From Planctomycetota bacterium (lineage in GTDB: Bacteria > Planctomycetota > JAJSAM01 > JAJVHW01): a stretch of 64,000 nt of DNA. How positions within the stretch are numbered: the first letter of the stretch is position 1; each line of letters opens with the position of its first letter. The position numbers were made by a program, and so were the translations under genes. The DNA is taken from assembly GCA_965248445.1 (NCBI GenBank), contig CBDFJG010000003.1, forward strand, positions 1,664,001 through 1,728,000, in the 5' to 3' direction. Under the pieces are notes generated by a model. It was not told the origin of the DNA. It made no database searches and worked only from the letters and a program-made list of their open reading frames with translations. This document shows positions 56,954 through 62,508 of this stretch, piece by piece.

Positions 56954-57301
56954 ATGTCCTCACCGAACGACCCACCGGGTGCTGAGATGACCGTCGCGCT
57001 TTACAAGCCGTTCGACGGCAAGGACGCGGAGCTGCGCGAGATCATCAAGCGCCACGTTCCCTACCTGCGCAGCGAGGGCCTCGCGACCGACCGGCCCGTG
57101 GTCCACATGCGCGCAGAGAACGGCACGTACGTCGAGATCTTCGAGTGGGTTCCCGGCGCTGCGGAGGCGGCTCATTCGCACGACGGCGTGATGAAGATGT
57201 GGGGCGAGATGATGGCGGTCGCCGATTTCCCCGAGTTCCACGAGCTGGCCGAGAGCCAGCGCCGCTTCCCGCACTTCACGGCCGTCGATGACTTGGTCTA
57301 G
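56954..57301 (+). CDS. Hypothetical dimeric alpha/beta-barrel-like protein
   Basis: AGGAG RBS; YKP..GKDAEL...H...LR.EGL.TDR...GTYVEIFEW. Confidence 0.7.
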   Translation: MSSPNDPPGAEMTVALYKPFDGKDAELREIIKRHVPYLRSEGLATDRPVVHMRAENGTYVEIFEWVPGAAEAAHSHDGVMKMWGEMMAVADFPEFHELAESQRRFPHFTAVDDLV

Positions 57302-57764
57302 CTGACGCGCTCCGGCGACCAGCAGACGACGTGCAACGACTCGACGAAGTGCAACAGAGGTGCGGTATCGGGCAGCTCGATGCCTGTCGCCGCCGCCATG
57401 GTGTTCTCCGAGATCTCGGCCCAGGCTGGCGCGAGCGGCCATGGCGGGTGGCTGATCTCACCGCGTAGCAGGCCATCCGCGCCCGCTGCGTACAGGCAGT
57501 AACGCGCAGTGAGCCAGTGGTCGAGCGTCGCGGCTGTCGCTTCGTTCGGCATCGCCGTCGCTGCGTACTTCGCACGGAGGACTGCCGGCGGCGCGCCGGC
57601 GTGCGTTCTCTCGCTCACGTAGACGGTGGTTCCGTCGCCGCTCTTCTTGCACGACATCAGCGCGTCGAAGTAGGGGAGGTGGAACCACCGGCGCGCCACA
57701 CGGACGGCCAGGCGGCTGGCGGCGTCGAGGGAGAAGAACCAGACGCCGGGCTTGTCTCCGTGCC
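57298..57764 (-). pseudogene. 3' part of a YqjF/DUF2071 family gene truncated by IS66
   Basis: PGVWFFSLDAAS..AV..AR..FHLPY, WLTARYCLY, ISHPPWPL; N-terminal half absent. Confidence 0.85.
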
Positions 57765-59264
57765 GTAACCGTTCACCCCTTCGTCGCGAGCCAGGATCCA
57801 GATCGTTCGGCCATCGGTCGATCAAGATGTTGTGGGCGAGCGGCAGGACGAGGATCTGCGGGCGATGGTCGAGGGCCTTCTGGCCTGGATCGAGGAGCTG
57901 GAGCGTCGCGAAGCGAAGCATCTGCGCCGCATCGACGAGCTCGAGTCGCGTCTGAAGCGTGACTCCCGCAACAGCTCGAGGCCTCCGTCGTCGGACCCGG
58001 CGTGGTCCAAGCGCCGTCGCGGCCGAAGGCCGCGTAGCGGTCGCAAGCAGGGCGGACAGCCGGGCCATGAGGGCACGGCGCGCGAGCTGGTGGATCCGTC
58101 CAACGTCGATGAGACCAAGGAGCACCGTCCCGACCTCTGCGACGCGTGCGGACACGACGATCTCGAGCAGGGCATCGGCGATCCGTACCGGCACCAGGTG
58201 ACGGTGCTCCCGCGCGTGCTCGTCACGGTGCGGGAGCACCGGCTGCACAAGGCGCGGTGCCGGCGCTGTCGTGCGGTCACGACGGCGGTCCTGCCCGATG
58301 GCGTGCCGACCGGGGCCTTCGGTCCGCGGCTGACCACACTTGCCGGCGCGCTGCGCGGCGTGTACCGCGTGAGCGTGCGGGAGACGCAGCGGCTGCTCGG
58401 TGAGATCTTCGGTGTGAAGATGTCGCTGGGCAAGATCAGCGACTGTGAGCGTCGGCTCAGTGACGCTCTGCACTCGTCGTACCTCGAAGCCCTCGGGGCA
58501 GTCCGCACGTCGCTGCGAGCCAACGTGGACGAGACGTCGTGGAAGGAACGGGGCCGGGTGTGCTGGCTGTGGGCGGCGGAGAGCGAGCACGCCACAGCCT
58601 TCGGGATCGATCGCCGCCGCAGTGCCAAGGCGAAAGGGCGGCTGATCGGGCGGCGCTTCGGTGGCACGGTGATCAGCGACCGGATGGGTGCCTACGAGTC
58701 ACACCCACTTGCCCGCCGCCAGCTCTGCTGGGCGCACATCGAGCGCGCCTTCCGTGCGCTGGCCGAAGGCCCGCGAGAACATCGCCGCTTCGGCAACAAG
58801 GGCGTCATGATCGCGCAGTCGGTCATGCGCAGCTACCGGCTCTTCGGTGAGCACGGCGACCGTGACCGGCTGCAAGGCGAAGCCGCTGTGCTGCGCGGAC
58901 GGCTCGAGCGACTGATCGCGAACGACGACTCGGCTCTGGCCAACCATCTGCGCCCCCGCGTGGTCGCCCTCTTCACCTATGCGCGGACCCAGGACGTGAG
59001 TCCGACGAACAACGCCGCCGAGCGCGCGGTCCGCAAAGCGGTGCTCTGGCGCAAGGGCTCCTTCGGAAGCCAGTCCGCTCGCGGACTCCGCTTCGCCGAG
59101 CGCGTGTTGACCGCCGCGGCCACGCTGCGACGCCGTGGCGACCAAGTCTTCGACTTCCTCGCCGACTCGGTCGCCGCGCACCTCACCGGCGCCGACCCGC
59201 CCGTCATGGTCCCGCTGCCCGTCGCACGCTGAGGCTCACACGCTGTCAAGGGGTGAACGGTTAC
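57765..59264 (+). mobile_element. IS66-family element (single-ORF, ISBst12-like organisation)
   Basis: Perfect 17-bp IR GTAACCGTTCACCCCTT at both ends; no matching target duplication. Confidence 0.92.
57832..59232 (+). CDS. IS66-family transposase
   Basis: NSSRPPSSD, GGQPGHEG, CDACG, NVDETSW, ISDR, QLCWAHIER, PTNNAAERAVR. Confidence 0.94.
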   Translation: MGERQDEDLRAMVEGLLAWIEELERREAKHLRRIDELESRLKRDSRNSSRPPSSDPAWSKRRRGRRPRSGRKQGGQPGHEGTARELVDPSNVDETKEHRPDLCDACGHDDLEQGIGDPYRHQVTVLPRVLVTVREHRLHKARCRRCRAVTTAVLPDGVPTGAFGPRLTTLAGALRGVYRVSVRETQRLLGEIFGVKMSLGKISDCERRLSDALHSSYLEALGAVRTSLRANVDETSWKERGRVCWLWAAESEHATAFGIDRRRSAKAKGRLIGRRFGGTVISDRMGAYESHPLARRQLCWAHIERAFRALAEGPREHRRFGNKGVMIAQSVMRSYRLFGEHGDRDRLQGEAAVLRGRLERLIANDDSALANHLRPRVVALFTYARTQDVSPTNNAAERAVRKAVLWRKGSFGSQSARGLRFAERVLTAAATLRRRGDQVFDFLADSVAAHLTGADPPVMVPLPVAR

Positions 59265-59335
59265 CCTCGGCCTACGGGGCGGCAGCATGGGGACAGTCTA
59301 GACGGCTCGATGTTCCCTTGCCTGCCGCCGGAGAC

Positions 59336-59480
59336 GGAACGCTCCAAGGGTGGAACGGTCGGTTCGATCGTGCGGACAGGGGGGGAGTGGATAACCCCTC
59401 GACACATTTTTGGGAAGTCCGAGTTCTGGAGCGCCCCCAGTCGCCGCGGATCGCCGTGCGCCTGCACGTCAGCATGACGC
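59336..59480 (+). repeat. Diverged intergenic repeat, copy A
   Basis: GGAACGCTCCAAGGGTGGAACGGTCGGTTCGATCGTGCGGACAGGGGGGGAGTGGAT aligns with copy B at 60486. Confidence 0.75.
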
Positions 59481-59507
59481 CCGTCCTACCATGTCGTCGT
59501 GGGGATC

Positions 59508-60473
59508 ATGCAACCGACCATCGTCTACCGGGACCCGCGACCAATCTCGGGCACGGTCGCCGTGCTCCTCGGCGTCGCAGCCGTCCTCTCGGTCTGTGGG
59601 ATCTTGCTGGATGCCGGGGTGCTCGACTCGCTGGACCGACTCGCTCTCGGCGGCAACCAGGCGGAGAAGTTCGAACGCGCGTTCGCATCGGTAGTGCGTC
59701 TTGAGCAATCTGACGTGGTGCTCTGGGTTCTGACGGGCGTCGCGTTCGTTCTGTGGATGCGTCGCGCCGCAATCAACAACATGGCGTTGGGCGCCAAGAA
59801 GATGCGGCACGGTCCCAGAGCGGGTTACTGGTTCTTGGTTCCCCTTGCGCACGCGATCGTCCCCTGCCTGGCCGTCGCAGAGGCGTGGCGAGCCAGCGGT
59901 CGCGGCAGAGGTGAGACGTGGAAGACGAACTCGACTTCCCCCCTCGTCATCGCTTGGTGGATCGCGTTCGTCGTCTCGTTCGTGGGCGGGCAGTTAGTGT
60001 TCGTCATCGCCGACTGGGAAGACGTCGAGTCAGTGCAACGGCTCTTTCGGTGGGATGTCGGGCGACGCGGAGGCCGCGTGCTCGCCGCGATCCTCGCGGT
60101 CGCCGTTGTCTTGGGCATCTCAACTCGCCAGAGGGCGAAGCTGCACGCGCTGGAGACCGCCGAGAACCGGCTCACGCTGGACGGGGCGTCGAGGAGAGTC
60201 GTCAGCCAAGCGACGGCCTCTGCGGCGCCAGCAGCACATGCATTCGACGGCGGAGAAGGAAGCAGCCGTGAGGAGCAGTCTTCGGAGAATCGCGTCATAC
60301 AGTCGTCCCGCGATGTGCCAACTGCGCAGCGTCGGCGCGTCCAAGACGCATCCAGTTCCGCAATCGTGCGGCTCTGCGATGGTTGTGCGGGCGAACTTGA
60401 GCGAGAGGGCTCGGTTGTCGAGTCGTTCGGCGCTCGCGGGGGCGCCTGTGAGATGTGCCACCCGCCGCTGTAA
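59508..60473 (+). CDS. DUF4328-like membrane protein with C-terminal Cys pairs
   Basis: FVLWMRRAAIN, GYWFLVPLAH...P..AVAEAWRAS, LVIAWWIAF; CDGC/CEMC tail. Confidence 0.75.
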   Translation: MQPTIVYRDPRPISGTVAVLLGVAAVLSVCGILLDAGVLDSLDRLALGGNQAEKFERAFASVVRLEQSDVVLWVLTGVAFVLWMRRAAINNMALGAKKMRHGPRAGYWFLVPLAHAIVPCLAVAEAWRASGRGRGETWKTNSTSPLVIAWWIAFVVSFVGGQLVFVIADWEDVESVQRLFRWDVGRRGGRVLAAILAVAVVLGISTRQRAKLHALETAENRLTLDGASRRVVSQATASAAPAAHAFDGGEGSSREEQSSENRVIQSSRDVPTAQRRRVQDASSSAIVRLCDGCAGELEREGSVVESFGARGGACEMCHPPL

Positions 60474-60485
60474 CAGCGCCGAGCG

Positions 60486-60645
60486 GGAACGCCCCAGGAG
60501 AGAACGGTCGATTCGATCGCGGATGCGGGGGGAGTGAATGGCCTGCCCCGATAGTTTTGGGGAATCGGGAACCTCCGGCTCGTACGCCACGCGAGCGCCG
60601 CGTGCCCCCGCCGCGGAGGCGGCGTACGCTCACGGCGCCGACGCG
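60486..60645 (+). repeat. Diverged intergenic repeat, copy B
   Basis: GGAACGCCCCAGGAGAGAACGGTCGATTCGATCGCGGATGCGGGGGGAGTGAAT aligns with copy A at 59336. Confidence 0.75.
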
Positions 60646-60678
60646 CCCCCGTGCGCGTTTCACCAACAGGGGGTAGCC

Positions 60679-61050
60679 ATGCCAAGACCTTGGCTCAGGA
60701 CCACACTCGCCGTCGGAGTTGTCATCTCGCTTGCGACGCTGGCCGTCGCTCACGGCGGAGGTCTCGACTCGCAGGGCGGCCACAACGACCGCAGTGCTGG
60801 CACGTACCACTTCCACCGCGGAGCGCTCGCGGGACGATCGTTCTCGTCGAAGTCTGCGGCCGCCACGGCGCTGCGGAAGCACAACGCTGCCGCGGCAAGC
60901 ACCGCTGACGACAAGGCGGCAGACAACGATCCAAAGCGCGTGCTGACGCGCGCCACTACGGCGAAGAAGGTGGACGCGCTGATCGCCGTGCTGGTGCGGA
61001 AGGGGTCGGTGACTGAGAGGGAACTCGCGGCTGAACTGAAGAAGCGGTAG
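60679..61050 (+). CDS. Secreted YHYH-motif (His-rich) domain protein
   Basis: Signal peptide then AHGGGLDSQGGHNDRSAGTYHFH. Confidence 0.8.
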   Translation: MPRPWLRTTLAVGVVISLATLAVAHGGGLDSQGGHNDRSAGTYHFHRGALAGRSFSSKSAAATALRKHNAAAASTADDKAADNDPKRVLTRATTAKKVDALIAVLVRKGSVTERELAAELKKR

Positions 61051-61275
61051 CGCCTCGCCTTTCACAGGAAGCGCGTCCGCACGCGCAGCCGTTCCGAGTC
61101 ACCTGACGAGCAGCCTCCGCATCTCCGGCGTTAGTTCCTCGACGATCGCGCTACGGAAGTGTGGGACCTTCTTGGGGCCGACGAACCTGATGGCCGAAAG
61201 CGAGCGCGTTCTCGCGTGCGGCCAAGACGCATCGAGACCTGGCGCGGCGCGGCAAGACCTCGACGAGACTGCGTT

Positions 61276-61755
61276 CGCCGCGGAGAACTCCTCCGCCTGG
61301 AGTGGCGCGACGTGGACTTCGGTCGCCGGATGGTGACGGTTCGAGTCGCGAAGAACGGCCAGCCCCGCGACGTCCCGCTCACACGCCGCGCGACCACTGC
61401 GCTCGCCGATCTCAAGGCGAAGCGCACGATCACCCTGAGCGGCCCTCAGCGCGTGTTCTCGTGGATACCGGAGCAGTGGCCCGGTCATCTTGCGAAGGAC
61501 TACAAGCGGGCCGTGAAGGCGGCTGAGTTGCCGCCTCTGCGCCTCCACGACCTTCGGCACCTTGCCGCTGTGAACCTCGTCAGGAGCGGCACCCCACTGC
61601 CCGACGTGGCGAAGTTGCTCGGGCACAAGACGCTGGCGATGACGTGGCGCTACGCCCGGCACACGCCGGGGGACTCAGCGCTGCTAGCGCGCGACCGGCT
61701 GGAGGCGTACTTGGAGACGGGTGAGAGTGCGGAGCGCAGTACAGCGATCTCCTGA
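61276..61755 (+). pseudogene. Tyrosine recombinase/phage integrase, C-terminal catalytic remnant
   Basis: RRGELLRLEWRDVDF, KNG, RLHDLRH, LLGHKTLAMTWRYA; upstream sequence is not integrase-like. Confidence 0.88.
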
Positions 61756-61771
61756 CCAGTAGACTGTGCGC

Positions 61772-61924
61772 GTGACGACGAACGACCCGCCCTCGAAGCC
61801 CAAGGACGACGAGGAGCCCGCCACGATGGACGTGGAGGAGTTCGACGTGCTCTTGGCGGGGGCGCTCGGTGCCGGTCGGCCAGATTACGAAGACGAACCA
61901 GAGGACGATGACGGAGACGAGTAG
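61772..61924 (+). CDS. Possible small acidic protein (50 aa)
   Basis: GTG...TAG ORF MTTNDPPSKPKDDEEPATMDVEEFDVLL... with GC3-rich codons. Confidence 0.35.
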   Translation: MTTNDPPSKPKDDEEPATMDVEEFDVLLAGALGAGRPDYEDEPEDDDGDE

Positions 61925-62165
61925 GAGAGAAGCGCGCTGGTCGCGCTTTCTCGCCTTGGCGGCTGCCCTCGTCTTGGGCGTGAGCGCGTTCTCGCAGGTG
62001 TTCGCCTGGATCGTGTTCCGCGACCACGAGGAGGAGGCGATCCTGTCGGACTTCGTGGGCGGCGTCCTGCTGTTCGAGTTCTGGGTCGCGCCCTGGGTCA
62101 CGCTTGCCGCGTTCGTGCTACTCGTCGCGTCACTCTGCGTCGCCGGGAAGTGGACCCGCCGGTAA
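61908..62165 (+). CDS. Small two-TM membrane protein
   Basis: GAGGA RBS, two hydrophobic helices. Confidence 0.55.
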   Translation: MTETSRREARWSRFLALAAALVLGVSAFSQVFAWIVFRDHEEEAILSDFVGGVLLFEFWVAPWVTLAAFVLLVASLCVAGKWTRR

Positions 62166-62364
62166 CGCCGTCACGCTCGTGGGTTCGGGAACGACATCCC
62201 GCGTTCGGTACACGTCCGGTGGCGGTGCCGCGGGCTAGCGGCTACTTCCCCGGCTACTTATTGAGCACGTTTGAAGGCGTCACGGCGCACGCACGAGGAT
62301 GCGCGAACGCGCCAATTGCGAGACTGGAGCGACCAAAGTGGGCTCGCAACCGCAGGCTTCGAGC

Positions 62365-62405
62365 GGATTTTGAATCCTACGCGTCTGCCATTCCGCCACT
62401 CCGGC
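62365..62405 (-). pseudogene. 5' half of tRNA-Leu(CAA); probable att-site remnant
   Basis: Minus strand reads GCCGGAGTGGCGGAATGGCAGACGCGTAGGATTCAAAATCC, then diverges with no intact T-arm or acceptor 3' strand. Confidence 0.85.
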
Positions 62406-62508
62406 CTGGTTGCAAGGCCTTACCTCTAGCGGAACCCGCGCAGACTGAGAAGCGCCCGCCGAGCGGGAGCCAGTTCACCTCCCGCCGGGGCCCGGGTGGT
62501 CGTGCGCG

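Follow-up and report, generated by a model that had tools for sequence, protein, structure and literature searches.

Two diverged repeats in a decayed tRNA-Leu(CAA) island of a Planctomycetota bacterium, possibly duplicated promoter-upstream DNA

Two diverged non-coding repeats, A and B, head two different genes beside a tyrosine-recombinase remnant in a Planctomycetota genome. Do they delimit single-gene cassettes, or is their origin of another kind? The window is the whole stretch of 64,000 nucleotides that was analysed, and its genome, G000, comprises 5.4 Mb in 4 contigs and is 92% complete. Copy A extends in full over 59326–59482 on the plus strand, with a core at 59336–59392, TTTTGGGAA at 59408 and a distal block at about 59431–59482. 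Copy B extends over 60477–60646, also on the plus strand, with its core at 60486–60539 and about 20 extra bases ahead of the distal block. The two copies are in direct orientation, at the positions given in the preliminary description, and are spaced 1.15 kb apart. Their cores start 172 bp (A) and 193 bp (B) ahead of the ATG codons at 59508 and 60679, matching the 170–190 bp reported before, and B does begin 12 bp past the stop of the first gene at 60473.

The first gene (59499–60473, plus strand) encodes a DUF4328 membrane protein of 324 aa, counted from a GTG, with a C-terminal CxxC...CxxC. The family was named earlier from the sequence and is borne out by Pfam (PF14219, E 1.8e-15). No homologue is found at E 1e-20, and distant homologues only, with 24–41% identity, occur in 14 of 400 phylum genomes. 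The second gene (60679–61050, plus strand) encodes a small YHYH-domain protein of 123 aa with a hydrophobic N-terminus. Here too the earlier assignment holds, with NCBIfam NF033223 at 38.1 bits against a cut-off of 30. This protein has 7 homologues, and the closest accessible one, in a Planctomycetota MAG, has unrelated upstream DNA.

The relationship of A and B is strongest in the 57-bp core. The alignment has 45 of 57 identical columns (79% identity), and blastn over the whole 5.4-Mb genome gives E 1e-4. The local score of 47 compares with a shuffle mean of 13.8 and is reached by 0 of 1000 dinucleotide shuffles. The core contains two GAACG repeats 15–16 bp apart, an imperfect CGGTCG-N3-CGATCG palindrome and a run of six to seven G; six of the nine substitutions between A and B are transitions. 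Under strict local scoring, 45 of 1000 shuffles score as high as the TTTTGGG(G)AA block and 298 of 1000 as high as the distal block, and the similarity outside the core as a whole is not significant (273 of 1000). Global scoring, which is gentler, lends modest significance to all that lies outside the core: the score is equalled in 4 of 2000 random genome segments and in 13 of 2000 shuffles, and for the distal block, with its best window free to choose, in 30 of 3000. The shared blocks across about 150 bp that had been described are thus strong in the core and weaker than implied in the other two. Identity is 45/57 in the core and 61/111 outside it (Fisher p 0.002). The homology is probably about 150 bp long, with the core much better kept. 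Such unevenness is as expected of a constrained site or of a patch that may have been homogenised later.

The whole genome contains two copies, A and B, as seen by blastn, nhmmer and a block scan. The next nhmmer match in G000 has only E 2, and in the block scan the two copies score 42 and the next locus 31. Filter-free scans show no third copy in the 64-kb window or in five other island or prophage stretches (96 kb), where the best match of the model has E 0.078. As to the ends of an IS or MITE, no further copy is found on either strand of G000, and A and B are direct, not inverted. The pattern is not rare, since the same genome has three further intergenic repeats that are local, with two copies within 4 kb.

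Relatives are represented by many fragmented MAGs, none of the same genus as G000. In blastn of A against 60 genomes just short matches appear, mostly in the distal GC-rich part. An 18-mer with 1 mismatch is found in 3 of 16 class genomes, and no match extends. A sequence-only model, which scores A and B themselves at 93–100 bits, reaches at most 20.9 bits in the phylum set, where 13 of 150 genomes have a match at E 0.05, and at most 18.3 bits in the class set, where 14 of 16 have one at E 0.5; the seven top matches inspected all lie inside predicted coding genes. The start of contig C111 in G005, a genome of the same family, has a 13.6-bit match (E 0.005 in 97 kb). BLAST of 400 phylum genomes, with the best 2 candidates per genome, yields 65 matches to B, nearly all in the GC-rich distal part; this is weak evidence because the search missed the sister copy in G000 itself. 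Among viral contigs, two patterns give 0 matches and a third gives 100 stretches, none continuing the core. BLAST of phages and plasmids gives chance matches only (E 0.6). The core is not found in 173 loci of YHYH homologues (1.45 Mb) or in 35 loci of related integrases, and the best match in cargo arrays of relatives (91 kb) has E 0.074. No convincing further copy is seen in the genome itself, its relatives, viral contigs or YHYH loci, and in everything searched this is the outcome that the preliminary description had named as refuting its reading.

This count bears directly on the idea that A and B mark off single-gene modules, exchanged either by homologous recombination, in the manner of the PeSLs treated below, or by a site-specific recombinase. 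Direct repeats do surround exactly one gene, B starts just past the stop of that gene, and the locus is mobile-element cargo. However, there are two copies only, and local comparison finds no site behind the YHYH gene or behind the integrase fragment. Sequences of 79% identity with indels over 57 bp, such as the core, are a poor substrate for homologous recombination, and its palindrome is weak, at 6 bp with a 3-base centre. In the contigs from 4 runs of one sample, which drop rare variants, there is no joint of A to B. One contig of about 3.16 kb covers 59239–62394 without differences (4 runs, single sample). Two weak contig joints, 59197 to 59450 and 57573 to 60930, have a short side of 21 letters, and neither joins A to B. 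Nothing indicates that the core is cut by a recombinase.

As in integron cassettes, a single gene here is bounded by two related non-coding sites, with a tyrosine recombinase gene close by. Integron attC sites have RYYYAAC and GTTRRRY ends. No such ends, strict or loose (YYAAC..GTTRR), occur on either strand of 59201–62500, in agreement with the first reading of this DNA. No IntI is found in G000 (92% complete) above the TIGR02249 cut-off, the best candidate scoring 88.7 of 265 bits. A and B thus differ from integron sites in having no attC ends, no long imperfect palindrome, no IntI and no site after the second gene, and their conserved part lies at the start of the spacer. A cassette-type system delimiting single genes, as first proposed, is not supported with no third site, no attC and no IntI, and we regard module boundaries as very doubtful.

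On the accounts given in PMC2839356 and PMC4122927, the nearest working analogue of a cassette reading is the PeSL, the promoter/stem-loop cassette of T4-type phages. As summarised there, a genome has about 50 PeSLs, which contain consensus sigma-70 boxes as well as a stable terminator stem-loop and form mini-circles. A and B resemble PeSLs so described in being repeated intergenic DNA, with the stop codon of the preceding gene at its start and variable genes of unrelated kinds behind it. In contrast, they are only two copies in 5.4 Mb, with lone TANNNT boxes in place of a consensus promoter. They have no stable stem-loop or terminator-like site, folding no better than shuffles, and no A-to-B circle joint appears in the contigs of one sample. 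Still more doubtful is a version in which A and B would be conserved, promoter-bearing module boundaries of an unsampled family of Planctomycetota integrative elements, with single cargo genes excised as circles and swapped, and without attC or IntI. On that reading, A and B would be all that is left of such boundaries in an element now dead. In a narrow literature search, no description of the A/B element or of a matching non-integron cassette system was found.

What kind of element, then, surrounds the repeats? The integrase fragment (61273–61755, plus strand) corresponds to residues 217–365 of a 377-aa relative with 63% identity (tblastn) and belongs to the PHROG 1 integrases, so the recombinase remnant noted earlier is real. 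The N-terminal 216 residues are missing and are not found elsewhere at similar identity. Against TIGR02249 (IntI) the fragment scores 35.9 bits, with a cut-off of 265. This relative, the closest intact integrase, lies in genome G004 beside a tRNA-Leu(TAA) and points toward the intact tRNA, whereas the fragment points toward the tRNA half. Classified by sequence, the adjacent integrase is a remnant of a phage-type, tRNA-targeting enzyme of neither the Xer nor the integron kind. Most related integrases in the class adjoin a tRNA gene. Between the fragment and the tRNA half, a small acidic ORF at 61760–61924 has a leaderless TAGACT promoter, and its DNA is 73% identical to an element ORF on G005:C111.

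The tRNA half (62365–62405, minus strand) is an exact 41-bp match to the 5′ half of tRNA-Leu(CAA), ends just past the anticodon loop and is likely attL; this specifies the tRNA att reported before. The intact tRNA-Leu(CAA) lies at C3:324471–324557 (plus strand), 1.4 Mb from the half and inverted. Tandem AAGTAGCC repeats at 62238–62261 (minus strand) are likely arm-type sites of the P′ side. The same tandem pair is also found upstream of the intact tRNA-Leu(CAA), a tRNA-Leu(TAA) and a tRNA-Met in G000, and a similar pair lies between the G004 integrase and its tRNA-Leu(TAA). Near-identical upstream DNA with the tandem repeats is present in the window at 62238–62405 and in G000 at C3:324330–324557, C4:1666255–1666480 and C4:1635557–1635720. 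The AAGTAGCC repeats seem to be the arm sites of an element family that replaces the 5′ end of tRNA genes. A and B are both without these arms and score at background against the att region, and for the latter reason they are not sites of the island integrase. The locus is a decayed, dead island at tRNA-Leu(CAA), with A and B in its cargo end. Another island scar is seen at C2:702280–702320 of G000, where a 3′ tRNA-Asp fragment lies near an integrase remnant and a small membrane-protein array.

Islands with a 5′ tDNA fragment are known, and Islander, as described in PMC4383910, has 159 of them among 3919. Compared with that description, the locus likewise has a tyrosine integrase, a displaced tRNA half and cargo genes, and its intact relatives adjoin tRNA genes. 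It differs in that the integrase is a C-terminal fragment and that A and B lie outside its att system. The tRNA half and the intact tRNA are not within 200 kb and not in the same orientation. The length and orientation filters, as described there, would reject the locus because the intact tRNA is 1.4 Mb off and inverted.

This distance has a likely explanation in an IS66-family element at 57765–59264 (plus strand), one of about 50 copies in G000. Its flanks have no matching 8-bp duplication, and it is therefore a likely rearrangement breakpoint. The 8-mer of the right flank pairs with the copy at C3:1791529 and that of the left flank with C3:1426557. On the right side, IS66 cuts the start of a divergent small membrane-protein gene (59265–59317, minus strand; promoter TAGACT at 59295–59300, ATG at 59288), and the rest of this gene lies from C3:1791530 onward. 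On the left side, at 57301–57764 (minus strand), a DUF2071 gene is cut, and its other part is likely beside C3:1426557. Since the flanks pair with distant copies, recombination between IS copies likely moved the A/B piece. The pairing likely accounts for the 1.4-Mb inverted tRNA distance, although the full path between the ends is not traced.

Over the genome, IS66 has 49 left and 48 right ends, and 20 of the 49 left ends have a matching 8-bp flank, in only 3 cases at the opposite end of the same copy. The left and right ends of IS1380 number about 70 each, and almost all of them are at CTAG-like targets. A link of the locus to HK97-type prophage genes from C3:1793770 onward is not established, as an IS1380 with mismatched flanks intervenes. 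That prophage piece (C3:1793770–1811467) has terminase-, protease-, capsid- and connector-like genes and a 936-aa ORF, possibly a terminase–portal fusion, and another piece at C3:15600–31300 has a helicase/tape-measure-like stretch, all by rough gene calls. A dispersed repeat of about 100 bp, starting with GTCTCCCTCC, occurs at C3:324613–324710 and elsewhere in dozens of copies; it is REP- or MITE-like and unrelated to A and B.

A tRNA origin may also be considered for the repeats themselves, as decayed scars of repeated integration at a tRNA 3′ end, with a single cargo gene remaining at each scar. On its minus strand, A agrees with the 3′ end of tRNA-Leu(CAG) in 25 of 32 columns with a score of 36, and A is the top non-tRNA intergenic match for this 3′ end. 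The score is reached in 2 of 400 windows under a best-of-all-tRNAs null and in 2 of 226 windows with a G6/C6 run, among which A itself may be counted. The strand of the match agrees with the att half. However, the match leans largely on the G7 run and has three gap columns. With flanks it is unremarkable (3 of 600, 114 tests), and about eight ideas, this one included, were tried. Leu(CAA), the local tRNA, scores only 22, and both copies are without the AAGTAGCC arms of the island element. B scores 24 against tRNA-Leu(CAG), below the null mean of 26, so the likeness is confined to copy A. Integration scars are thus a distinctly unlikely source of the pair.

Least probable of all the readings is that the repeat is transcribed before each gene as an RNA, either a structured leader or a small RNA. 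Both copies are predicted to form a small CGGUCG/CGAUCG hairpin, and B has a TANNNT at 60552 where the aligned place in A reads CATTTT. Against transcription as a structured RNA, the four 150-nt strands fold with z-scores of +0.35 to +1.39, and the 85-nt pieces with −0.69 and +0.12. No Rfam family matches near threshold, the best being radC with E 0.16 and 17.7 of 40 bits. The DUF4328 start is likely leaderless and lies downstream of A. The portable leader RNA of the preliminary description therefore finds no support from folding or Rfam, with two sequences only to compare.

Promoter signals lead to the reading that we favour. G000 has a strong genome-wide signal of leaderless transcripts: TANNNT peaks 6 bases before predicted starts, with 149 counts against 2–5 at gaps 0–5. 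A predicted −10 box TACCAT at 59487–59492 (plus strand) stands 6 bases before the GTG at 59499, at exactly this peak spacing, and is likely the leaderless promoter of the DUF4328 gene. For the YHYH gene, the candidate −10 box is TACGCT at 60625–60630 (plus strand), its function suggested by sequence. A second TANNNT, TAGTTT, lies at 60552, and an SD-like AGGGGG at 60668–60673. The core starts 151 bp before the predicted TACCAT of A and 139 bp before the TACGCT of B. We give an even chance to A and B being old duplicated promoter-upstream DNA in the decayed island, now heading two different genes. An old duplicated promoter region is likelier than a gene-cassette system because no third copy is found. 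Of the portable promoters proposed at first, this is the part that is retained, as duplicated upstream DNA only.

In this favoured reading, a single upstream region would have been duplicated within the element, and the two copies would have ended up in front of different genes. The DUF4328 gene would likely be transcribed from its own leaderless TACCAT box, and the YHYH gene from the TACGCT box. The core may be a putative binding platform for a regulator, since neither gene has a consensus −35. Promoter copying in cargo arrays does occur in the lineage, as judged from a duplicated segment in G005. There, on G005:C12 (L430), a 35-bp segment with 97% identity and with TACGAT at its end stands before each of two dissimilar leaderless cargo genes 287 bp apart. 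Against this analogy, the G005 repeat is shorter, ends at the −10 box and has no resemblance to A or B. Paralogous cargo genes of G000 also have promoters in common.

The promoter reading has its own difficulties. The predicted −10 boxes lie 80–150 bp downstream of the core, and A and B do not have the box in common, because TACGCT of B aligns with TGCGCC of A. In the genomes and loci searched no homologue of the core was found beyond the two copies, and the six transitions among its nine substitutions would suit drift equally well. No sigma-70 consensus is found in the core, and −35/−10 sites in 59200–62500 number 0. ECF sigma promoters have the consensus GGAAC-N16/17-GTC, and a similar match is present in A with N17 and in B with N16. 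In 2772 upstream regions of G000 this match is not enriched by strand or spacing, with 15 and 17 on the coding strand against 13 and 17 on the other. The sigma-54 consensus is GG-N10-GC, and by eye it was seen in A only and was rejected. Ahead of the closest YHYH homologue, the DNA resembles B no more than by chance (259 of 2000), and a TACGCT context common to the two was likewise dismissed at chance level. A link of the core to promoters of a small membrane-protein family was discarded, with ranks scattered from 32 to 411 of 445.

A and B may instead be an inert leftover of an old duplication, possibly a decayed gene, without present function; we consider this unlikely. The searches found no copy outside the A/B locus, the changes are transition-rich with indels, the element is dead and scrambled, and one frame gives NGRFDR in both copies. 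The uneven identity along the repeat (p 0.002) speaks against an inert leftover. As to a decayed gene, about three of the nine core changes are synonymous in the NGRFDR frame, as many as expected under neutrality, and the frame is broken in B. When the genome and the loci retrieved were searched by six-frame tblastn, no non-self match appeared at E 0.05.

The gene cut by IS66 at 59265–59317 (minus strand) belongs to a small membrane-protein family that begins with MxPPRRPRRW, has one hydrophobic stretch, a WPE and a highly variable tail, and often ends in RDSSLGVIAPR. Its genes have leaderless promoters. Matches number 16 in G000, 13 in G005, 3 in G001, 1 in G006 and 0 in the other 13 class genomes, and none of three tested has a Pfam match. 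At element ends, several of these genes form tandem rows immediately before intact tRNA genes. Further loci are C4:1652000–1669000, C3:323800–324250 and C2:705900–707100 in G000, contigs C111, C12 and C42 in G005 and C31 in G001. No viral relatives of this family or of DUF4328 were found.

On the best reading, A and B matter little in themselves, since a duplicated upstream region among the cargo of a decayed tRNA island is nothing unusual. The arrays of the MxPPRRPRRW family, with their constant start and variable tail, seem the better lead from this locus. If it is true that related elements carry arrays of such repeats, they would represent an integron-independent shuffling of single genes in a poorly studied phylum.
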